A stretch of 64,000 nt of DNA from a candidate division CPR2 bacterium GW2011_GWC2_39_35 (GTDB lineage Bacteria > Patescibacteriota > CPR2), in NCBI GenBank assembly GCA_000995065.1, contig LBWX01000003.1:22304-86303 (forward strand). Reading direction: 5' to 3'. The notes under the pieces were generated by a model. That model did not search any database. It saw nothing but the letters and a program-made list of their open reading frames with translations, and had not been told where the DNA came from. Below are positions 1,339-63,045 of the stretch, in pieces (within the stretch, counting starts at the first letter, position 1; each line of letters starts with the position of its first letter). The position numbers were made by a program, and so were the translations under genes.

Positions 1339-1659
1339 TATCCCTCCACTTTAAATTCTATCCCCAAAGCCCCAAGGTTGCAATGGGAAGCTACTAGCTC
1401 ATAAAATGGTAAAAATACATCGCCTGAAAGTTATCGTCAAATTTAGCTTCAAAAAGAGAACCGGTCCCTAGGCCCTACCAAGAATCAAAAATAGCTAATT
1501 TTGTATTCAAAAAAAGAACCGTCCCCCTTCCTCCTGACAAAGGAGATTGCTTCGGGCCGATTATATCGGCCCTCGCAATGACATTTGTAATTTAGACTTT
1601 GACATTGATTAGAAATTCGAAATTAGGAATTAGACATTCAAAGAGCTTTGCTCTTTGGC

Positions 1660-4170: not shown

Positions 4171-4385
4171 TTGCTCCTCTTTTTCTAGTTGTCATTGCAA
4201 GCCTTTAGACGAAGCAATCCCGTCCGATATTAACTAGATTGCCGCGATCGCTTAATTCTCCCTCGCAATGACTGAAATATTCTTTCTTAATATGTCTTTT
4301 AACTTATCCATTATACCTAATTTGAAGCTAAAAAACAAGTTTCTCATACAGCTTTTTAAAACCGGAAAATCAAGAGTCTAAAGGG

Positions 4386-17060: not shown

Positions 17061-17112
17061 TGTAATTTAATTATAGTTCATTTTCATTTATTTTGCCAAC
17101 AGAAAGGTCGAA

Positions 17113-17142
17113 TAAAAAATACCCAAACTGGGTATTTTTTAT
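17113..17142. terminator. bidirectional intrinsic terminator-like hairpin
   Basis: AAAAATACCCA-AACT-TGGGTATTTTT: an 11-bp stem flanked by A-run and T-run, so T-rich on both strands. Confidence 0.6.
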
Positions 17143-17512
17143 CTACTATGCATTAAAGATACATAGTTTAACTCCCTACAGGTGGTAGAGAGCCATTGGA
17201 AGATAGCAACAAATAAACCTTACCCTCCAATAAGTTAACTACCACTCCTTTTTTAAAATAAGGTACAAATCGAAATAATTCCTTTTGCTTGCCTCTTTTA
17301 TTTTTGGGCTTGCTTTTTATTTTTGTGTTTAAAGGTTTTTTAAACCTCAGATTATTTAAAACAGTAGGGAAAGTCCAGATTAGAAATAAGGGGGGTACTT
17401 CTAACCTGGGCTTTCACCCACCATTTTTCGCTCCTTCTTAAGCTTCAAATGGCAAGCCAATCGTGATAAGCAAGCCCTTGACATAAGCTATTATGAAACA
17501 GATGTGTGAAAC
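17143..17512 (-). ncRNA. candidate non-coding RNA locus of unknown identity
   Basis: Minus-strand TTGACA-17/18-CATAAT promoter at 17478-17512 lies about 340 nt upstream of the bidirectional terminator, with no ORF over 14 aa between them. The plus strand carries RNase-P-like CR-I (GGGAAAGTCCAG at 17366-17377) and CR-V (ACAGAATCTGGCATA at 17544-17558) motifs with a compensatory CCAG/CUGG change. Identity and strand are unresolved. Confidence 0.25.
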
Positions 17513-17667
17513 ATGTCAATAAAAAAATTGTGAATAAGCAAAAACAGAATCTGGCATAAAGTATTTAGAATATAGGATAAGAATATAGGGCTTAGAATTA
17601 AGAATTATTAGGGCTTTAATATCCTCTAGATTCTTTATTCTATATTAAAGATTCCAAATTCCAGATT

Positions 17668-24359: not shown

Positions 24360-24475
24360 ATTAATATTTTAGGCTAATAGACTAAAGGGTCAATACCAAT
24401 TAACAATAAGCAATAAGCAAAGAACAATTTAAGAATCGAGATTTGTGCATTTATTCTTGTTTATTGTTTATTTTT

Positions 24476-25384: not shown

Positions 25385-25524
25385 GACAAAAATACAATAT
25401 AGAATTTGGAATTTAGTATCTAGAATAGGAATGAAGAATAAAAAAATTTAGAATTATTCAGCACTACATTCTGTATTCAATATTCCTATTCCAAATTCTA
25501 AATACTACACTCTAGATTCTTTAG

Positions 25525-26079: not shown

Positions 26080-26203
26080 TTTTCCTCCTTTTTTGTTTAG
26101 CGAACAAAAATAATAAGCAATAAACAGTTAACTATTAAGATCTAAAAGTATTATAAAACGTTTTTTATTATTTGTTTATTGTTTTTATTTACTATCTTAG
26201 TTC

Positions 26204-28056: not shown

Positions 28057-28145
28057 TGGTGCCCGGGGCGGGACTCGAACCCGCAAGGTGTCGCCACCAC
28101 TGGATTTTAAGTCCAGCGCGTATACCAATTCCGCCACCCGGGCGC
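28057..28145 (-). tRNA. tRNA-Leu (anticodon TAA), long variable arm, CCA encoded
   Basis: The reverse complement folds as GCGCCCG acceptor, anticodon loop CTTAAAA, T-arm GGTTCGAGTCC, 3' CACCA. Confidence 0.85.
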
Positions 28146-28234
28146 TTTTAGAATTAAGAATTATGAATAACGTATAAAGAACATACAAAAAAATAATACT
28201 TAATTCTTAACTCGTTATTCTTTATTCCGAATCA

Positions 28235-28308
28235 TGGAGGCCTCGACCGGATTTGAACCGGTGTACGCGGTTTTGCAGACCGCTGCGTAGCCACTCCGCC
28301 ACGAGGCC
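28235..28308 (-). tRNA. tRNA-Cys (anticodon GCA), CCA encoded
   Basis: The reverse complement GGCCTCG...anticodon loop CTGCAAA...GGTTCAAATCC...CGAGGCCTCCA. Confidence 0.85.
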
Positions 28309-28311
28309 AAA

Positions 28312-28761
28312 TTATCGTAGGGCAACTTGATCCGGTGCAATTATTTTGCCGAAATCATCCGCTCTTTCAGCCGTTTGATCGTTGATTCCCAGACTTAGAT
28401 AGCTACCATCAGCGGCCTTAAAATCCCAAAACTTTTCCGATTCACCCTTTTTAAATATCTCTTCTCCGAACGTCTCTTCAGCAGTCGCACGAGCAGTAAA
28501 AAGAAAATCAAGCCTCTTTCCCATAAATTCCAGGCTTTCTGGAAAGGGCTCCTCAAAAGGAGTCTCAATCGGTTTTACCAAAATATAACTATTGGATTCT
28601 TCATCATCGGCAAACACATAACCGCCACTCAAAAAACATTTTACATAATATGTTCCATCATCAAAACGAAATTTAATAACTTCTTTTACAGAGAATTCTT
28701 TACCTTCAACCAGTAACTTCGCATTCGGTTTAATTTTTGAACGAAACACATTAACTTCCAT
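28312..28761 (-). CDS. hypothetical protein embedded in the tRNA array
   Basis: 149-aa ORF between tRNA-Gly and tRNA-Cys; acidic, no TM; no family recognised. Confidence 0.45.
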   Translation of the reverse strand: MEVNVFRSKIKPNAKLLVEGKEFSVKEVIKFRFDDGTYYVKCFLSGGYVFADDEESNSYILVKPIETPFEEPFPESLEFMGKRLDFLFTARATAEETFGEEIFKKGESEKFWDFKAADGSYLSLGINDQTAERADDFGKIIAPDQVALR

Positions 28762-28780
28762 CTTCTACCTCTAAATTAAA

Positions 28781-28855
28781 TGGAGCGGACGAGCGGAATC
28801 GAACCGCCATCTTAGCCTTGGCAAGGCTACGTAATAACCACTATACGACGCCCGC
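28781..28855 (-). tRNA. tRNA-Gly (anticodon GCC), CCA encoded
   Basis: Anticodon stem TAGCC/GGCTA, loop TTGCCAA; T-arm GGTTCGATTCC. Confidence 0.85.
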
Positions 28856-28918
28856 ATATTTATTTATTTTTCAAATTCTCTATAAAACAAGCCTATCCAA
28901 TTGTAAAAGAACTTTATA

Positions 28919-28993
28919 TGGTGGCGAGGGGCAGAATCGAACTGCCCACGCAAGGATTTTCAGTCCTTCGCTCTACCACTGAGCTACCCCGCC
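28919..28993 (-). tRNA. tRNA-Phe (anticodon GAA), CCA encoded
   Basis: The reverse complement GGCGGGGTAGCTCAGTGGTAGAGC...loop CTGAAAA...GGTTCGATTCTGCCCCTCGCCACCA; the plus-strand ORF 28918-29115 is therefore spurious. Confidence 0.9.
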
Positions 28994-29169
28994 GTGTTCA
29001 GATTTCGGATATCAGACATCGGATTTCTGAAAATCCGACCTCCGAACTCAGATATCTGACATCCGAATTTGGCTTGCCATTTGAAGCCATTCACGAAACT
29101 TGGTTGTTAAACTGAGCAGTCCTACTACGCTAAAGCTTCGTAGGACATTTTTCGCCTCGCGGCGAAAAA

Positions 29170-29246
29170 TGGTGGGCGCTACAGGACTCGAACCTGTGAC
29201 CTACTGGGTGTAAACCAGTCGCTCTAGCCAACTGAGCTAAGCGCCC
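29170..29246 (-). tRNA. tRNA-Val (anticodon TAC), CCA encoded
   Basis: The reverse complement GGGCGCTTAGCTCAGTTGGCTAGAGC...loop TTTACAC...GGTTCGAGTCC...GCGCCCACCA. Confidence 0.9.
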
Positions 29247-29402
29247 GTGTTTCTTTTTCATACTCAAAACAGCAAAAATATATTAACATAAAAACAAAAA
29301 TTTTGGAATAATTTTTAAGCAAGGATTAAGAATAAAGTATAAAGAATGAAGGTTTTTAAAATTGCTTAATGCTTACTACTTAATACTATATACTTCTTCA
29401 AC

Positions 29403-29489
29403 TGGTGCCGAGGACAGGACTTGAACCTGCACAGGCTTGCGCCCACATGCACCTCAAGCATGCGTGTATACCAATTCCACCACCTCGGC
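29403..29489 (-). tRNA. tRNA-Leu (anticodon GAG), long variable arm, CCA encoded
   Basis: The reverse complement GCCGAGGTGGTGGAATTGGTA...loop CTTGAGG...GGTTCAAGTCC...CCTCGGCACCA. Confidence 0.85.
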
Positions 29490-49811: not shown

Positions 49812-49889
49812 GTCATTGCGAGCGACTGGAAGGAGCGCGGCAATCTTGTCTTTAAACCGATTAGATTGCTTCATTTCATTCGCAATGAC
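49812..49889. repeat. GTCATTGCGAG palindromic repeat element, copy B (78 bp)
   Basis: GTCATTGCGAG (49812-49822) ... TTCGCAATGAC (49879-49889) with an inner GCAATCT/AGATTGC stem; homologous to 4191-4272 and the half-copy at 1571-1582. Confidence 0.6.
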
Positions 49890-57257: not shown

Positions 57258-60200
57258 TTAGCCTACATTCTCCAGCTTCACCGAAAGCAGGCTTGAGATA
57301 TGGTTTTCGTCCATGGTAACGCCGTAAAGAATATCGGTCACTTTCATGGTTTCCCGATTATGAGTTATAAAAACGAATTGGGTTTTTTTAGAAAGCTCTT
57401 TTATAATCTTTAAGAATCTCTCGGTATTAGATTCGTCTAAAGCCGCATCCACCTCGTCTAAGACTACAAAAGGACTCGGATTAAGATCTAAGATTGCCGC
57501 CAATAATGACAGCGCCGTTAGAGTCCTTTCTCCACCGGACAAGGCATTAATGTTATCCATTCTTTTTCCCGGTGGTTTTGCGCTAATATCAATATTGCCT
57601 TCAGCATCAATTTTTAATTCCGCTTTCCCGCCCACAAAAAGAATCTCAAAATAGCGGCTAAAGTTCTGAGCAATTTTATTAAATGCCGCGTTAAACTGAT
57701 TTTTGATCTGCCGATCCAGTTCCTCTATCACTTTGGATAGATCCTCTTTAGCCCGAGATAAATCTACCAGTTGTCCGGACAAAAAAACATAACGCTCGTC
57801 TACTTCCATATATTCTTCCCTAACCAGAGGATCAATGTCGCCAATTGAAATCACCTTGATGTTTAACTTTTCAATTTTGCGCTCCAGATCTAGAAAAATG
57901 TCTTTAGGCAGATCAACTATCTTTATCTTGCCGCTTTCTAGATTTTCTACGAAAGTGGTTCCAAGCTCTTTTTTGGCTTCATATTCCAAATCATCCTTCT
58001 TGGTTTCCAATTTGGCAATCTCAATCTTAAGAGATGATATTTGTCCTTCTATTTCGTGGATTAAAGACTGCTTGCTTCTTATCTTAGACGTAAGTTCGGA
58101 AGTTCCTTCGCTTCGAAGACCTTCCCCCTCTACTTTATTTAACTCGTCACGCTGTTTTTCAATTTCTTTTTCTTTCAGGTCCAATTCTTTTTTAAGCCCC
58201 TCCGAGAAGCTTGAGATCTCATTTACTTCCTTATTGGCCTCGACAGAATCTTGCATCTTACCCTTAAGCTTTTCTATCTCCTCACTGAGTTCTCTTTTTT
58301 CGGCCTCTCTAGCCCGAACATCCATCTTTACTCCAGAGATATCCGCCCGAAAAGCATCAATCAGACTATAAATCTCTTGCCTTAAATTCGAGGAGCCATT
58401 AATATCCTCTTCTTTTTCCACTTCTCTAAGTTCCTCTTTTAGAGTATTTATTTCTTTTTCTTTTTTATCTAAATCTGTTTTCAGCTCGGATAAATTTTTT
58501 TCTAACTCGCTAATCTCTTTCCCGGCCCCTCTTATCTTGTTTATTTTTTCATTTAGTTGACGAATTTCTTCATTTATATTTTTTTCTTCAAACTCTTTGG
58601 CGCTCACAACCGCTTTTATTTTAGAAGCCTCGCTTCTAAACAGATCAATTTGTTCGTAAAGTTCTTGCTTTACTCGTACCTTCGAATTAATTTCTTTTTC
58701 TAAATCTACAATTTTATTAAAGGTATCCGATTTCTCGGGTTTTACCTTGCCCAAGAGATCCTTTAACTTTTTCTCAGTATCTGCTAGCAGACTTTTCAAA
58801 CCGGATAATTCATCGAAGCTGCCAACGTTTTGCACTTTAGCTATAAGACTTAAAAATAAATCATAAAAAACGTTAAATTCGTCGGCAAAGGCAAGCTGGT
58901 CGAATTTGGTCTCTTTCTTTAAATTCTGGATGATCTCTTCGTAATTTTTAAGTTTGTCATTTGTTTCTTCAAGTCTGTTTTCCGCTTCTTCTAATCCCGA
59001 TACCTTCGACTCCAATTCTTTTACGAGGTTCCCCATCTCTTTAATTAAGTCATCCAATTTTGATTTTTTTTCATGAGCCAAATTCTCCAAATCCTTTAAG
59101 CTAACTCCCGTCATCGCTCTATTGACATCTAATTTGCTGGAAACCTGCAAGTATTTTTCTCTTATATCTTCTTTTTCCCTAACATTTTTGTCTATTTCTG
59201 CTCTTAGATTTTTTAAGCTCTCCAGCCTTTGGTCTTGCTTTTTTCTGGCGCTTTCATTTAAATCTTTAAGTCTTTCTTCCGCCCCGTGGAGTTTAGTAGT
59301 CTCTTCGTAAAGCTCAGACTGAAGATTGCCAATAATAAAACTTACGTCTTTTAATCTGATGTTTAACTTTTCGATATCTTTTTCCAGTTCCTTAGTATTT
59401 AAGTTAGCCAGAACCCTTTTTACTTCCAATTGGCTCGATATTTGAATTTGCCGGCCCCTAATACTTTCTCTCTGTGCTAGTTTTTGCTCGAGCTCTAGAC
59501 GTAATTTCCTCAAATTTTCGACTTTTTGGCGTTCTTTAGAAAGGCTTTCATCAAGCTCTTTATTGATTTGATCAAGCTCTTTTTTAATGGAGGCCGCTTC
59601 TTTATCAAGTTCGTTAAAGTTTTCCTTATTTATAAGAAGCTTGGAATCGATCTCGCCCCACACAGCAGCGTAATATTTTTCCTGAAGACCGGTTAACTCA
59701 TTTACGAACTCTTCTCTGGCTTCAGCTCTTTTAAATTGGCTTTTTAAGACTCTAAGGCGAGGTTCTAATTCCGTCACAATATCCTGAACCCGAACTAAGT
59801 TTTGTTCGGTGGCCGAGAGCTTCCTTACAGCCTGATCTTTCTGAAGCTCAAATTGCTTAACTTGCGCCGCTTCGCTAAAAAAAGCCTTTCTCTCTTCGGC
59901 ACCTAAAAACAGAAACTGATCCACCATTCCCTGGCCAATTACCGAATAGCTGGACCGCCCAAAACCGGCTTTGGCGAGTAACTCCTGAATATCAAAAAGG
60001 CGCGCCTTCTTACCGTTAATCATGTACTCGTTGTCACCGTTTCGGTATAGGCGCCTTGAGATCGAAACCTCGTTAAAATCGATTGGAGCTTTATTGTCTG
60101 AATTATCAAAAAGAAGTGAAACCTCAGCAAAAGAAGATCTGGATTTTTTTGCACTGCCCGCAAAAATGACGTCTTCACTCTTTTTGGCCCGAAGCAATTT

Positions 60201-60359
60201 ATAACTCTGCTCACCCAAAACCCACCTTATGGCATCTGAAATATTGGATTTTCCGGAACCGTTCGGACCAACAACGCCAACAATGCCCGGCTCGAAATCC
60301 AAAGAGTATTTCCCGGCAAAAGATTTAAAGCCGAATAGTTCGATTTTCTTTAAATACAA
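57258..60359 (-). CDS. smc: chromosome segregation protein SMC
   Basis: 1033 aa; Walker A GPNGSGKSN, long coiled coils, hinge, C-terminal LSGGE...DEVDAALD. Confidence 0.9.
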   Translation of the reverse strand: MYLKKIELFGFKSFAGKYSLDFEPGIVGVVGPNGSGKSNISDAIRWVLGEQSYKLLRAKKSEDVIFAGSAKKSRSSFAEVSLLFDNSDNKAPIDFNEVSISRRLYRNGDNEYMINGKKARLFDIQELLAKAGFGRSSYSVIGQGMVDQFLFLGAEERKAFFSEAAQVKQFELQKDQAVRKLSATEQNLVRVQDIVTELEPRLRVLKSQFKRAEAREEFVNELTGLQEKYYAAVWGEIDSKLLINKENFNELDKEAASIKKELDQINKELDESLSKERQKVENLRKLRLELEQKLAQRESIRGRQIQISSQLEVKRVLANLNTKELEKDIEKLNIRLKDVSFIIGNLQSELYEETTKLHGAEERLKDLNESARKKQDQRLESLKNLRAEIDKNVREKEDIREKYLQVSSKLDVNRAMTGVSLKDLENLAHEKKSKLDDLIKEMGNLVKELESKVSGLEEAENRLEETNDKLKNYEEIIQNLKKETKFDQLAFADEFNVFYDLFLSLIAKVQNVGSFDELSGLKSLLADTEKKLKDLLGKVKPEKSDTFNKIVDLEKEINSKVRVKQELYEQIDLFRSEASKIKAVVSAKEFEEKNINEEIRQLNEKINKIRGAGKEISELEKNLSELKTDLDKKEKEINTLKEELREVEKEEDINGSSNLRQEIYSLIDAFRADISGVKMDVRAREAEKRELSEEIEKLKGKMQDSVEANKEVNEISSFSEGLKKELDLKEKEIEKQRDELNKVEGEGLRSEGTSELTSKIRSKQSLIHEIEGQISSLKIEIAKLETKKDDLEYEAKKELGTTFVENLESGKIKIVDLPKDIFLDLERKIEKLNIKVISIGDIDPLVREEYMEVDERYVFLSGQLVDLSRAKEDLSKVIEELDRQIKNQFNAAFNKIAQNFSRYFEILFVGGKAELKIDAEGNIDISAKPPGKRMDNINALSGGERTLTALSLLAAILDLNPSPFVVLDEVDAALDESNTERFLKIIKELSKKTQFVFITHNRETMKVTDILYGVTMDENHISSLLSVKLENVG

Positions 60360-60435
60360 AAAAGCCTCACTTTGTTACTGCCCTATCATAGCAAAATCTT
60401 TTGATTAAATGAAGCTTAACCAAAAATTAAAAAAA

Positions 60436-60558
60436 TCCAAATGACAAAGCCCAAATGTCAAATCAAATCCAAATTTCAAATGACAAAGAAGATTATTTGG
60501 TCATTAAATCATTTGTCATTCATTTGACATTTGTAATTTGAGCTTTGACATTTGAAAA
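60436..60558. repeat. array of six about 11-nt motifs AAATG[AT]CAAA[GT], three direct then three inverted, forming an about 120-nt imperfect palindrome between rnc and smc
   Basis: CCAAATGACAAAG, CAAATGTCAAAT and CAAATGACAAAG on the left; CATTTGTCATT, CATTTGACATTTG and CTTTGACATTTG on the right. Confidence 0.55.
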
Positions 60559-61260
60559 CTACTTATAGTTTTTCAACGCGTCTTCGGCGGCAGATTGTTG
60601 CGCTAGCTGCTTTGATGGCCCTTTGCCTTTTCCAAGCATCTTCTCGCCTAGAAAAACACCGATCACAAACTCTTTGGCGTGATCCGGTCCGTATTCTTCG
60701 AGGACTTTGTACGACGGAGTTATGCCTTCTCGGTCCTGAGCTAATTCTTGAAACCTGCTCTTTGGGTCGATATATAATTCTTTTTCTAAAATAGTCGGCA
60801 ATTCACTAATAATATCTTTTAAAATAAACTGTTTGGCCACCTCATAACCCTGATCCATGTAGATGGCGCCAATTATGGCTTCCATCGCATTGGCAAGAAT
60901 CACGTCCCTTGCTCGGCCGACACTCTTTTTTTCACCCCTGCTTAAAAGGAGATAGTCTTCGATATCCAAGCTTTTAGCGACTTTAGATAAGTTTTCGGCT
61001 TTTACCAAAGCAGAGCGCCAGTTTGTTAGCTCGCCTTCCGGATTGGGATAATTGTCGTACAAATAATGAGTGACCACCAATTCCAAAACTGCATCGCCCA
61101 AAAACTCTAGCCTTTCATTATGCCCAATCTTAAAATCGGAGTGTTCATTAAGATAAGACCTGTGCACCAAAGCCTGTAGCAGAAGATCTTTATTTTTAAA
61201 GCTTACCTTTAATCTATCTTCGAGTTTTTGAATTTTGAGTTTCTCATCAATCATTGTCAT
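60559..61260 (-). CDS. rnc: ribonuclease III
   Basis: ERLEFLGDAVLELVVTHYLY signature plus a C-terminal dsRBD. Confidence 0.93.
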   Translation of the reverse strand: MTMIDEKLKIQKLEDRLKVSFKNKDLLLQALVHRSYLNEHSDFKIGHNERLEFLGDAVLELVVTHYLYDNYPNPEGELTNWRSALVKAENLSKVAKSLDIEDYLLLSRGEKKSVGRARDVILANAMEAIIGAIYMDQGYEVAKQFILKDIISELPTILEKELYIDPKSRFQELAQDREGITPSYKVLEEYGPDHAKEFVIGVFLGEKMLGKGKGPSKQLAQQSAAEDALKNYK

Positions 61261-62173
61261 GTTTCTTTGTAATTATCCTTATCGCTTCGTTTATTAAATC
61301 TTCTGTATTTTCGTAACCGGCATTGTGAACGGCATTTTCGGCCTTAAACCATCTTACGTCTTTTACTTCCGGATCAACCACCTTAGCCATATCAATATTT
61401 TCTTCGTTTGTCCTAATTAGGAAAACTTCCACTTTCTTTAAAACTTTCTCGCCGTCTTTTTTGGAATGAAGTTCAAATCGTCCAAGCTTACTTTCTATAT
61501 TTAAATCTTTAATGCCGGTCTCTTCCGAGGTTTCTCTTATAGCTGCTTTTTCGGTGTCTTCATCATCTTCGACTCTACCCTTCGGAACAGTCCATTTCTC
61601 AAACCTGTCCTTAATAAGTAGAAAATAAATATCATCGTTTTCTTTTCGATAAACAAGGCCGCCAGATGCTTCCACTGCTTCCGCCTCTTCTTCGTAAATA
61701 TCCGAATTCCGGTAAACCGTACCCAAGACCCCGTTTACAAATTTAGATGAGTTCTCGCCTCCAAATGCCTTAGCTAACTCCACTGCCTCATTTATGGCAA
61801 CTTTAGGCGGCACTTCTCTTGAAAATATTAGTTCATAAATTCCAAGCCTCAAAACCGCCTTATCAACGCCGGCGATTTGGTCGATTGGCCATTCCGGCGC
61901 AGCAGGTGCTAAGATAGAATCAATTTCTTTTACATTATCTAGGGTTCCACCTACGAGGACGCTAATAAAATCGATATTATCAATACTTTTTGCAAACTCT
62001 TCAGTATTTCTCTTTAAAACTTCTAGTATTTGCTCTCTGGGGATCTCTTCACCAAGCTTTATCTTTCTAAAATCCCATTCGTATAATGTTTGCATCGCCA
62101 CAATTCTTGCTAAGTGACGGTTGGAGGCCATTTTTTCTCCTTTTTTTGTTGGCAAATGGGTTAATCGACTCAT
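61247..62173 (-). CDS. nusB: NusB (transcription antitermination factor) N-terminal domain fused to a C-terminal NUDIX hydrolase domain
   Basis: HLARIVAMQTLYEWDF...AINEAVELAKAFGGENSSKFVNGVLG (NusB) then GRVEDDEDTEKAAIRETSEETG (Nudix box); likely start at the MASNRH Met (62131). Confidence 0.75.
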   Translation of the reverse strand: MSRLTHLPTKKGEKMASNRHLARIVAMQTLYEWDFRKIKLGEEIPREQILEVLKRNTEEFAKSIDNIDFISVLVGGTLDNVKEIDSILAPAAPEWPIDQIAGVDKAVLRLGIYELIFSREVPPKVAINEAVELAKAFGGENSSKFVNGVLGTVYRNSDIYEEEAEAVEASGGLVYRKENDDIYFLLIKDRFEKWTVPKGRVEDDEDTEKAAIRETSEETGIKDLNIESKLGRFELHSKKDGEKVLKKVEVFLIRTNEENIDMAKVVDPEVKDVRWFKAENAVHNAGYENTEDLINEAIRIITKKHDND

Positions 62174-62876: not shown

Positions 62877-63045
62877 AATAATTAAATAATTTTCTAATTG
62901 ATCTAATTAACCTAATAAAACTCCAATTTCTAAATCCAAAATAACTCAATAATTGTTTTGGGCCATTAGACATTTTATCATTAGCATTTCTTTAGAGCAA
63001 TTAGAAATTAGATAGATTAGAAATTTTATAATTGTTGCCCTTTAT

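Follow-up and report, generated by a model that had tools for sequence, protein, structure and literature searches.

A palindrome of opposed heptamer arrays between rnc and smc of a CPR2 bacterium belongs to a dispersed non-coding repeat family

The gap between rnc and smc in a candidate division CPR2 bacterium contains an imperfect palindrome of 120 nt, which is one copy of a dispersed non-coding family of opposed, degenerate heptamer arrays and which was inserted or expanded within a short rnc-smc spacer in this CPR2 lineage. As one of a family dispersed over gene ends, the element looks generic rather than like a dedicated RNase III control site. It might be hypothesized that it is a repeat-family hairpin acting, in a REP-like fashion, as terminator or insulator and as a barrier at the 3' end, a reading to which we give an even chance. 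Cleavage by RNase III, as for any long duplex, is possible, while an rnc-specific autoregulation through the element is not supported. All positions refer to the window, i.e. the whole 64-kb stretch of DNA that was analyzed.

The palindrome in the rnc-smc gap

All genes at the rnc-smc locus are carried on the minus strand. The stop codon of rnc (TAG) occupies 60559-60561, and the gap towards smc, 199 nt in length (60360-60558), is made up of the palindrome, hereafter element J, followed by a U-tract, a candidate promoter and a Shine-Dalgarno-like sequence. The public record of the identical rnc protein reads ribonuclease III, candidate division CPR2 bacterium. The locus occurs in 10 public contigs in which the gap is 100% identical and shows no variation in copy number; thus, these contigs provide no information on covariation or indels. 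The features of the locus are, in the order of transcription:

60559..61260, minus strand: rnc, encoding RNase III (233 aa); open reading frame, with Pfam Ribonuclease_3 and dsrm on the identical protein in public contigs
60436..60556, minus strand: element J, heptamer-array hairpin, based on the inverted repeat, the period-7 arrays, the fold and the identity in 10 public contigs
60509..60556, minus strand: 5' arm in transcript sense, A-rich, TTCAAATGTCAAAGCTCAAATTACAAATGTCAAATGAATGACAAATGA
60488..60508, minus strand: central region with apical loop, TTTAATGACCAAATAATCTTC, partly paired in the minimum-free-energy fold
60436..60487, minus strand: 3' arm in transcript sense, U-rich, TTTGTCATTTGAAATTTGGATTTGATTTGACATTTGGGCTTTGTCATTTGGA
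60422..60435, minus strand: T7-AA-T5 run, candidate terminator U-tract, read from the sequence
60385..60413, minus strand: candidate smc promoter with -35 TTCATT (60413-60408), 17-nt spacer and extended -10 TGCTATGAT (60393-60385)
60365..60370, minus strand: Shine-Dalgarno-like GTGAGG, 5 nt ahead of the smc TTG, read from the sequence
57258..60359, minus strand: smc (1033 aa, TTG start); open reading frame, with Pfam SMC_N on the identical protein in public contigs

Element J begins 2 nt past the rnc stop codon and follows the unit pattern (CAAANNN)x7 then (NNNTTTG)x7, its sense RNA being 5'-(NNNCAAA)n and then (NNNUUUG)n with internal loops and about 41-45 bp. The arms of the inverted repeat, located at 60438-60483 and 60509-60554, are 46 nt long each and 72% complementary. 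An initial, sequence-only reading had described three direct and three inverted copies of a motif of about 11 nt, AAATG(A/T)CAAA, filling the whole gap of about 200 nt. The imperfect palindrome and its strong enrichment in the motif proved to be real. In contrast, TRF identified a heptamer as the repeat unit (period 7, with 7.6 copies at 60438-60487 and 5 copies at 60521-55), of which the proposed motif represents one and a half; each arm comprises about seven heptamer units rather than three copies, and the palindrome covers 120 of the 199 nt. Within the 64-kb window, AAATGWCAAA occurs 10 times compared to 0.8 expected, a number reached in none of 100 shuffles, and five of the ten copies fall in 60439-60553, so that the motif is not merely common in AT-rich DNA. 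If one mismatch is allowed, CAAATGWCAAA is present on the plus strand at 60438, 60452, 60470 and 60477 and on the minus strand at 60523-33, 60530-40 and 60544-54. No open reading frame of at least 40 aa was found inside element J.

A long imperfect RNA duplex in the rnc transcript, as had been proposed from the letters, was borne out by folding. The region 60423-60556 in rnc sense yielded -40.1 kcal/mol as RNA (z = -5.98 against 200 shuffles) and -24.5 kcal/mol as DNA (z = -4.6), and the fold of element J itself is more stable in sense than in antisense orientation (-40.3 vs -31.0 kcal/mol). The basal helix of the hairpin consists of 18 near-perfect base pairs. No Rfam family matched the element, the only hits being to eukaryotic miRNA hairpin models at chance level (E about 1). 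In the direction of rnc sense only, a U7AAU5 tract starts at the base following the last hairpin pair; the opposite flank of the element reads GAAAACTAC and lacks a T run. The same T7-AA-T5 run is also positioned at about -40 to -60 of the candidate smc promoter, where an UP element would be expected. This candidate promoter, which is located downstream of element J and would drive smc, is partially retained in relatives: the -35 and the TGnTAnnAT box are found at the same place in L011, in which the GAGG of the Shine-Dalgarno-like site is conserved as well, and TGnTAAAAT is present in L015 and L018.

Sister hairpins, public copies and relatives

The architecture of element J is not specific to rnc or smc. 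The window harbors at least eight further hairpins with 7-nt-periodic arms that are built from other heptamers, among them GAATTTG, AGAATTA, TCTAATT and CAATAAG, and that are located behind unrelated genes or between tRNAs. All nine hairpins of heptamer build in the window are intergenic; in eight of them the 5' arm is A-rich and the 3' arm T-rich, six start 0-5 nt downstream of a stop codon or the 3' end of a tRNA, and three occupy tRNA spacers; another gap holding a hairpin is that between leuS and yceD. Correspondingly, self-similarity at lag 7 covers 217 intergenic and 0 genic nt of the window, and all nine period-7 segments are intergenic; at lags 2-21 other than 7, 12 and 14 it amounts to 0 nt. 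Of element J itself, the 64 kb of this genome contain one full copy and one 28-nt fragment. This fragment and two of the sister hairpins are:

25396..25524, minus strand: hairpin of 129 nt, heptamer GAATNNN / NNNATTC, starting 4 nt after the upstream stop codon
28144..28234, minus strand: hairpin of GAATTAA / TTCTTAA units, filling the entire spacer between tRNA-Cys and tRNA-Leu
1579..1606, plus strand: 28-nt fragment matching 60525-60552 at 25 of 28 nt (E = 9e-5 within the window), inside a heptamer array (1604-1642) downstream of a gene

Element J can be aligned end to end with other copies of a CAAATGN/CAAAGCC element at 77-81% identity, and such copies occur behind unrelated genes in many other genomes of Patescibacteria, Thermodesulfobacteriota and other phyla. 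Among 120 public loci, motif spacings of 7, 14, 21, 28 or 35 nt were observed in 199 cases compared to about 28 at other spacings, and inverted motif pairs were present in 9 of 17 Patescibacteria loci and in 9 of the 103 others. A consensus built from 111 metagenomic copies reaches past the 20-mer used for the search, and it shares with the window copy the irregular step CAAATCA-AATC-CAAA, showing that the order of heptamers is conserved; the 3' arm, on the plus strand CAAATGACAAAGCCCAAATGTCAAATCAAATCC..., matches this family consensus including the irregular +4 step. The A-rich arm almost always comes first (45:1), and either strand reads 5'-(CAAANNN)n ... (NNNTTTG)n-3'. The distance to the upstream stop codon has a median of 13 nt, and it is this stop codon, not the downstream start, that the placement follows. 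Several foreign contigs carry two copies within 2-8 kb, some copies reside in apparent operons, e.g. between Hdr/Qmo-like genes in L117, and five are located in divergent gaps. With respect to transcription, the CAAARCC arm was oriented in sense in 21 and in antisense in 34 cases (p = 0.10). A viral origin was rejected, as only five matches, about chance level, were obtained in IMG/VR; a DNA uptake sequence was rejected since the motif is not spread through coding DNA, with five copies outside the element in 64 kb. Literature searches with the motif strings returned unrelated primers only, and those for terminators or hairpins in CPR bacteria returned nothing.

A comparison with five relatives that share the synteny and possess an RNase III of about 70% identity (L011, L015, L018, L264 and L265) indicated that the hairpin is not tied to rnc. 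The sequence-only reading had proposed to look for a long hairpin between rnc and smc in relatives, and had named its absence beforehand as the outcome that speaks against it; the palindrome follows rnc in none of the five. In L015, L018 and L265 the rnc-smc spacers measure 32-68 nt, in L264 a 59-nt gap leads from rnc to rpsP, and in L011 two small genes are inserted after rnc. The hairpin of the leuS-yceD gap is similarly missing from L015 and L018, where leuS and yceD overlap, and in one relative this gap contains (CACCAAT)n, an array of another heptamer.

Possible roles and origin of the element

Element J probably forms the 3' end of the rnc message. The transcript would fold into an imperfect, AU-rich hairpin, about 45 bp long and directly followed by U7AAU5, and hairpin and U-tract may then act like a REP-type or an intrinsic-terminator element, by which read-through from nusB-rnc into smc would be stopped or attenuated. 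The remaining 3' hairpin would block exonucleases, smc would rely for its expression on a -35/extended -10 promoter of its own immediately downstream, and RNase III may shorten the long duplex. As the arms are A-rich on the 5' and U-rich on the 3' side, an A-tract and a U-tract border each inner sub-hairpin, which is the geometry of a bidirectional terminator. Hairpin formation alone does not impose a polarity of 45:1; a terminator geometry would. The suggestion of a terminator made in the initial reading is thus upheld with respect to the hairpin and the sense-only U7AAU5, but the stem is long and AU-rich, and a consensus terminator scan did not call element J. Several observations speak against this role: the AU-rich stem is far longer than canonical ones and the U-tail is not general in the family, copies reside within operons and divergent gaps, where a full terminator is unexpected, and the T-run could instead be the UP element of the smc promoter. 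Across the family, a run of at least five T following the element was found in 5 of 40 cases on the sense and in 2 of 40 on the antisense side, which is not significant. For 58 members in co-directional gaps, the sense RNA exceeded the antisense RNA in stability in 36 cases and fell short of it in 21 (Wilcoxon p = 0.04), with 249 G-U pairs in the sense and 179 in the antisense folds. This asymmetry is weak, and a skew in strand composition could account for it.

The proximity to rnc had also led to the proposal of a dedicated RNase III substrate, through which the enzyme would control its own or the smc mRNA by cutting the long duplex. Immediately 3' of rnc, a duplex of about 45 bp whose basal helix is near-perfect over 18 bp represents a plausible substrate, and this part of the proposal stands; other members of the class occupy tRNA spacers, in which processing would be expected, and RNase III cuts the Correia/nemis hairpins of Neisseria as well as the rnc leader of E. 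coli. The autoregulatory part does not hold, as no relative keeps the element with rnc and the family is dispersed behind many unrelated genes. In addition, the known autoregulatory site of E. coli lies in the 5' leader and not at the 3' end, and nothing in the sequence sets element J apart from the other copies. We consider a dedicated substrate very unlikely.

It is less improbable, albeit still doubtful, that the element is a selfish or neutral heptamer repeat which has no function at the rnc-smc locus and of which the hairpin and the U-run are by-products. Such a repeat would originate and spread by slippage, by unequal exchange or as a non-autonomous mobile element, and would persist only where it is harmless, namely in the short stretch that separates a stop codon from the following promoter. 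The lack of the element in the syntenic gap of all relatives examined is in line with this reading, as are the (CACCAAT)n array in the leuS-yceD gap of a relative and the differences in array length between related contigs, the array of L201 being expanded relative to L162, L171 and L253. Similarly, the ends of the elements are ragged in heptamer steps (48 elements), the AT-rich sequence has been retained in host contigs of 37-52% GC, and the similarity extends over the full length across phyla.

The lack of covariation between the arms also fits a neutral repeat. At the variable positions of the two arms, complementarity was no higher than in shuffles; native arm pairs did not fold better than swapped arms (-22.5 vs -24.4 kcal/mol), the window copy ranking 25 of 45; and RNAalifold on 17 elements returned a consensus of -0.54 kcal/mol with a covariation term of +0.23 and hence no supported consensus structure. 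As all three tests were negative, they do not demonstrate that pairing rather than the heptamer sequence itself is under selection. Other observations speak against a selfish or neutral repeat. The repeats flanking 48 elements, tested as target-site duplications, were chance-like, being 0 nt in 24, 1 nt in 12 and 2 nt in 8 cases. Within a limited sample of 240 loci, no arm pairs 0.26-6 kb apart that might represent long versions with cargo or a transposase were identified. The sole pair of filled and empty sites, L247 and L189, is not clean, since the 530-nt indel is bounded by CTTTGC repeats and includes other DNA. Furthermore, the array does not vary in copy number among the 10 public contigs of the locus, and pure slippage explains neither the 45:1 polarity nor the conserved heptamer order.

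As the arms conserve their sequence rather than their mutual complementarity, models based on sequence recognition stay alive. One of them, an array of binding sites at the DNA level, had already been considered in the initial reading; a protein bound to it would affect smc transcription or local DNA structure. TTGACA/TGTCA-type sites would be repeated every 7-14 bp in each arm, with the arms facing outward, and might be bound by region 4 of sigma-70, which recognizes TTGACA, or by an unknown factor. The variable position N7 is T in 41 of 59 copies, rendering TTGACA the commonest form; the genome has canonical TTGACA -35 boxes, and the array adjoins the candidate smc promoter. Nevertheless, none of the TTGACA boxes of the arms is followed by a -10 box after 17 nt, and the placement tracks the upstream stop codon instead of the downstream start. 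A sigma-70 promoter within the arms was rejected, as the only promoter-like match in the gap, ATGACA-16-AATAAT, is at chance level (1 found vs 1.8 expected). Since the sister hairpins of the window use unrelated heptamers, no single binding specificity explains the class. A binding array appears very unlikely.

Period 7 in all class members, whatever their heptamer, would be explained if the element served as a platform for a cold-shock-domain (OB-fold) protein which melts the hairpin and renders termination or processing dependent on temperature or growth. Csp proteins are antiterminators. For CspB of B. subtilis, binding to T-rich heptamers at a ratio of one protein to one heptamer has been summarized (PMC4679880). 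As each Csp covers about 7 nt of U/T-rich single strand, the (NNNUUUG)n arm would be coated. The arms at the 5' position, however, are A-rich and not U-rich, and a published alternative ascribes the excess of heptamers to polymerase slippage (PMC4692102). Of all readings, we regard this platform as the most far-fetched. It might further be speculated that the CAAATGN/CAAAGCC palindrome is a previously undescribed cross-phylum element of which the sequence itself is maintained. It would then be either a bidirectional terminator or insulator that is encoded in heptamers and recognized by a universal factor covering 7 nt, such as RNA polymerase itself or a cold-shock-domain protein, or a new non-autonomous mobile element without target duplications; we consider this rather unlikely.

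Comparison with known repeat systems

REP-type elements are 3' exonuclease barriers and partial terminators. Like REP/BIME elements and the REPINs of Enterobacteria and Pseudomonas (PMC3116915), the family described here is extragenic, imperfectly palindromic, present in multiple copies, probably co-transcribed with the upstream gene and found between the genes of operons. In contrast to element J, REPs are GC-rich, about 35 nt long, devoid of an internal period and restricted to lineages, and REPINs are tied to RAYT transposases. The family also resembles the Correia/nemis elements of Neisseria and ERIC, which are intergenic palindromes of 100-150 nt. These are co-transcribed with their neighbors, their hairpins are cut by RNase III, and they sometimes provide terminators or outward promoter boxes. 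They possess defined termini and TA target duplications, whereas the elements of our family are ragged, lack a duplication and have internally repetitive arms. Terminal inverted repeats (the 46-nt arms), an overall length of 120 nt and the lack of coding capacity are MITE-like traits of element J; a classical MITE was rejected because of the missing target-site duplication, the ragged ends and the absence of a cargo-bearing or autonomous relative among 240 loci.

With intrinsic bidirectional terminators, the element shares the succession of A-tract, hairpin and U-tract, the position directly after a stop codon and, in element J, the U7AAU5 tail; the stems of such terminators are composed of 5-14 GC-rich bp with a small loop, while that of element J has about 41-45 pairs, is AU-rich and contains internal loops. 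As in the E. coli rnc leader, a long hairpin that RNase III could cut would be present in an rnc transcript. The autoregulatory site of E. coli belongs to the 5' untranslated leader and has been retained together with the gene, whereas element J is located 3' of rnc, is missing in relatives and is one member of a dispersed family. TIGR arrays (TIGR-Tas), which are frequent in CPR bacteria, are likewise short-period repeats without strong sequence conservation. Their units comprise 36 nt (edge repeat, spacer A, loop repeat, spacer B) and lie beside a Tas gene with a Nop domain (PMC12045711). A TIGR array was rejected, as element J has a period of 7 nt and no spacers, occurs as dispersed single copies and neighbors rnc and smc.

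An RNase III self-regulation at this locus, being unsupported, is thus replaced by a testable, generic gene-end hairpin that would insulate rnc from smc. The sequences given here provide concrete substrates for assays of termination, RNase III cleavage and Csp binding, and the lag-7 signal together with inverted arms may serve as a signature of transcript ends in CPR genomes, in which terminators are poorly defined.

Since about 1990 (STRR), and anew in 2007-2015, an excess of 7-nt repeats has been described for bacterial intergenic regions, and to our knowledge no function has been accepted for it. Heptameric repeats include the STRR of cyanobacteria, TAACTGA of Beggiatoaceae, cyanobacteria and Bacteroidetes, and GGGAATC of Xanthomonas (PMC4679880, PMC4692102). 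The family shares with them tandem, degenerate 7-nt units (4-5 fixed nt plus NN) that are almost exclusively intergenic, array lengths that differ between some related contigs, albeit not among the 10 contigs of this locus, occasional inverted arrays with the potential to form stem-loops, and the occurrence of one heptamer across phyla, a CAAATGN array being common in Nostocales genomes. Cyanobacterial copies of this heptamer are for the most part direct arrays on one side only; unlike STRR, the family consists of polar inverted pairs (45:1), that is, hairpins of 80-130 nt abutting stop codons, and conserves the order of different heptamers. The heptamers described here are organized into polar inverted arrays with a conserved unit order that are placed after stop codons or in tRNA spacers, and such organized arrays are common to CPR bacteria and unrelated phyla. 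Should the terminator or the mobile-element reading hold true, a function or an origin would be provided for a heptamer excess that has so far been unexplained.

Anatomy of the rnc-smc palindrome

The motif AAATGWCAAA occurs ten times in the window (0.8 expected), with five of the ten occurrences at 60439-60553, and the gap between rnc and smc holds CAAATGWCAAA, with at most one mismatch, four times on the plus strand and three times on the minus strand. The inverted-repeat arms (60438-60483 and 60509-60554) are 46 nt each and 72% complementary, and the predicted folds, both of the rnc-sense RNA at 60423-60556 (-40.1 kcal/mol, z = -5.98) and of the element as DNA (-24.5 kcal/mol, z = -4.6), are far more stable than expected. 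Thus, the palindrome which the sequence-only reading had placed here is real and non-random. The unit of about 11 nt proposed by the same reading had to be revised, as Tandem Repeats Finder returned a period of 7 nt, with 7.6 copies at 60438-60487 and 5 copies at 60521-60555; the 11-mer amounts to one and a half heptamers.

The minus-strand gene order is leuS, yceD, rpmF, a nusB-NUDIX fusion, rnc, a 199-nt gap and smc, and the palindrome is positioned between the rnc stop codon and a candidate smc promoter.

Features of the rnc-smc junction, listed in rnc sense
60559-61260, minus strand: rnc (Pfam match on the identical protein in public contigs)
60561-60559, minus strand: rnc stop codon TAG
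60556 down to 60436, minus strand: hairpin, starting two bases past the rnc stop
60435-60422, minus strand: T7-AA-T5 after the hairpin
60413-60408, minus strand: -35-like TTCATT, followed by a 17-nt spacer
60393-60385, minus strand: extended -10 TGCTATGAT
60370-60365, minus strand: GTGAGG ahead of the smc TTG start
57258-60359, minus strand: smc, TTG start (Pfam match on the identical protein in public contigs)

The T-run is confined to the sense side of the hairpin, the opposite flank being GAAAACTAC. Among relatives with about 70% identical RNase III, the -35 and extended -10 boxes are found at the same position in contig L011, and TGnTAAAAT lies about 30 nt ahead of the smc start in L015 and L018; judged by these recurring boxes, smc therefore seems to be served by a separate promoter in the window organism and in all three relatives. 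NusB and a NUDIX hydrolase domain share one 308-aa ORF (61247-62173, minus strand) which overlaps the rnc start; they are separate adjacent genes in L264, and other relatives have NusB only. The 5' arm in rnc sense has an AUG 10 nt past the rnc stop and an 11-codon frame, MSKLKLQMSNE, followed by a stop (60536-60501, minus strand). The 7-nt period brings AUG and UGA into all three frames along this arm.

Syntenic junctions and further heptamer hairpins in the window

In ten public contigs with an identical RNase III the gap is 100% identical and, therefore, uninformative on conservation. The next relatives, in which RNase III is 67-72% identical and synteny is kept, do not carry the palindrome as a conserved junction feature, the test which the sequence-only reading had itself named: it is absent between rnc and smc in L015 (68-nt gap) and L018 (65-nt gap), the gap in L265 measures 32 nt, rpsP, not smc, follows rnc at 59 nt in L264, and two small genes are inserted between rnc and smc in L011.

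A scan for inverted and tandem repeats revealed further long imperfect palindromes in the window, whose arms are period-7 arrays of other heptamers. When the 64 kb was scanned for 28-nt windows whose self-identity at a given lag reaches 75%, lag 7 covered 217 intergenic nt and no genic DNA, and lags from 2 to 21 other than 7, 12 and 14 covered nothing.

Further heptamer hairpins in the window
17540-17667: behind an unrelated gene
24398-24475: behind an unrelated gene
25396-25524: behind an unrelated gene
26100-26203: behind an unrelated gene
62893-63030: behind an unrelated gene, in the leuS-yceD gap, TCTAATN-type
28144-28234: filling the tRNA-Cys/tRNA-Leu spacer exactly
28998-29075: in a tRNA-cluster spacer
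29317-29398: in a tRNA-cluster spacer

An A-rich 5' arm is combined with a T-rich 3' arm in eight of the nine window hairpins, and in six the first paired base lies 0-5 nt past a stop codon or tRNA end. In addition, 28 nt at 1579-1606 match one rnc-smc arm at 25 of 28 positions. The leuS-yceD hairpin has no counterpart in L015 and L018, where these two genes overlap, and the leuS-yceD gap of L264 (1182-1240) contains a different, direct array, (CACCAAT)n; the differing heptamers point to repeated, independent gain of arrays at this site. The tRNA cluster at 28057-29489 comprises six genes on the minus strand (Leu-TAA, Cys, Gly, Phe, Val, Leu-GAG), and the hairpins in three of its spacers hint that they take part in pre-tRNA processing or that the genes are transcribed as separate units.

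The roughly 480 nt downstream of one heptamer hairpin (17061-17539, minus strand) lack an ORF of at least 90 aa and an Rfam match at gathering threshold, and hold a TTGACA promoter-like site, a very stable predicted structure and a canonical GC-rich terminator at the end; this region may be an unannotated RNA or small gene. A cyclic-di-GMP-II riboswitch aptamer (49075-49160, minus strand; Rfam RF01786, 62.4 bits, gathering score 53.5) sits in a 1-kb gap without a called ORF of at least 90 aa.

A dispersed family of polar heptamer arrays

With each species represented by a single genome, a scan for pairs of AAATGWCAAA motifs separated by 1-25 nt gave at least 120 loci. The matches listed come from Nostocales and other cyanobacteria, 17 Patescibacteria, Acidobacteriota, Planctomycetota, Bacteroidota and others, and among them the motif recurs at spacings of 7, 14, 21, 28 or 35 nt in 199 cases and at all others in about 28, so that it is part of heptamer arrays everywhere. 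Among the same matches, 9 of the 17 loci in Patescibacteria and 9 of the other 103 had inverted array pairs, and the CAAA array came first in 15 of these 18; the Patescibacteria examples (Komeili-, Roizman-, Uhr-, Yanofsky-, Magasanik- and Saccharibacteria, Microgenomates) are intergenic hairpins that share the heptamer vocabulary of the window copy. Searching metagenomes for CAAATGNCAAARCCCAAATG yielded at least 119 loci, and 57 of the 121 matches listed have an inverted partner (at least 15/20 positions, within 260 nt). The consensus of 111 distinct copies among these matches runs past the 20-mer (...tCAAATcAAatcCAAAtg), and about half share the irregular +4 step of the window copy (CAAATCA, AATC, CAAA). 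IMG/VR gave only five matches, about chance level. The whole window element aligns to elements of other contigs at 77-81% identity over 96-127 nt; the one in L117 is flanked by genes for Hdr/Qmo/MvhD-like redox proteins, its host thus being a genuine non-CPR bacterium. The element is AT-rich throughout, although the GC content of its host contigs varies between 37 and 52%.

Two other features were observed. A GC-richer palindrome family with arms GTCATTGCRA...TYGCAATGAC (five arms in the window, 0.12 expected) is present at 1573-1582, 4191-4272 and 49812-49889, in L011 (1640-1730) and in the loops of L022, L062 and L084; in other Patescibacteria such a palindrome is nested in the loop of heptamer hairpins. 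In nine metagenome contigs (L162, L171, L201, L219, L221, L232, L244, L252, L253), a non-coding block of about 400 nt, conserved at 80-95% identity between contigs, is flanked by variable-length CAAATGN arrays on one side and a TAGAGAC/TGGAGAT heptamer array on the other.

Among the matches listed, 58 elements lie in co-directional, 8 in convergent and 5 in divergent gaps, and in co-directional gaps they start a median of 13 nt, most often 3-7 nt, past the upstream stop codon. For 87 listed arms with enough flank, the inverted partner was downstream in 45 and upstream in 1. This polarity is not imposed by hairpin formation alone, which would allow both arrangements; only one of them would be expected if the family descends from one element or keeps the A-tract/stem/U-tract geometry of a terminator. 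Also among the matches listed, the more stable fold belongs to the sense RNA in 36 elements and to the antisense RNA in 21 (Wilcoxon p = 0.04), and sense and antisense folds contain 249 and 179 G-U pairs, respectively, a suggestive bias confounded by strand composition skew. Runs of at least five T follow 5 of 40 listed elements in sense and 2 of 40 in antisense and are not a family trait, and the orientation of the slightly asymmetric arms relative to transcription (21:34, p = 0.10) was not significant among these matches.

Variable heptamer positions were no more complementary than in shuffles, exchanging arms between elements did not make folding any worse (native -22.5 vs swapped -24.4 kcal/mol; window copy ranked 25 of 45), and RNAalifold on 17 elements gave no supported structure. 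As none of the three tests detected covariation, arm complementarity comes from the shared heptamer vocabulary. Since sequence and not pairing is kept in the arms, the element may be recognized by a protein, which could bind DNA, for example at the TTGACA-like sites, or single strands, as would cold-shock-domain proteins with their 7-nt footprint (PMC4679880). Array length varies between related contigs, and the single filled/empty pair differs by a compound indel of 530 nt; element ends are ragged, and neither target-site duplications nor long versions were found in the sample. The main rival to a local role is that the repeat is selfish or arose by slippage, and is tolerated here without any local function.

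Possible role and comparison with known repeats

With good confidence, the rnc-smc element belongs to a dispersed family whose members are polar, inverted heptamer arrays, and the lineage of the window organism acquired or expanded this copy in its rnc-smc spacer. The full terminator anatomy, the smc promoter downstream, the placement of the class behind stop codons and tRNAs and a polarity like that of bidirectional terminators together lead us to favor a REP-like or terminator-like role. The hairpin would weaken read-through from rnc into smc and might also shield the 3' end. Of the RNA functions originally suggested, a terminator thus agrees with the anatomy of the rnc transcript, and RNase III autoregulation was not borne out, nothing tying this copy specifically to rnc regulation. 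Cleavage of the duplex by RNase III could occur by analogy to the Correia/nemis hairpin repeats of Neisseria, which are cut by this enzyme.

An excess of heptameric repeats, occasionally in inverted arrays, is known from bacterial intergenic DNA: cyanobacteria have STRR, Xanthomonas has GGGAATC, and TAACTGA occurs in Beggiatoaceae, cyanobacteria and Bacteroidetes (PMC4679880, PMC4692102). One origin proposed for such repeats is polymerase slippage (PMC4692102). Our searches of the open-access literature yielded no account of polar heptamer palindromes in CPR or of an AAATGWCAAA-type motif. Another kind of array common in CPR, the TIGR array, differs from the rnc-smc element in period and gene context.
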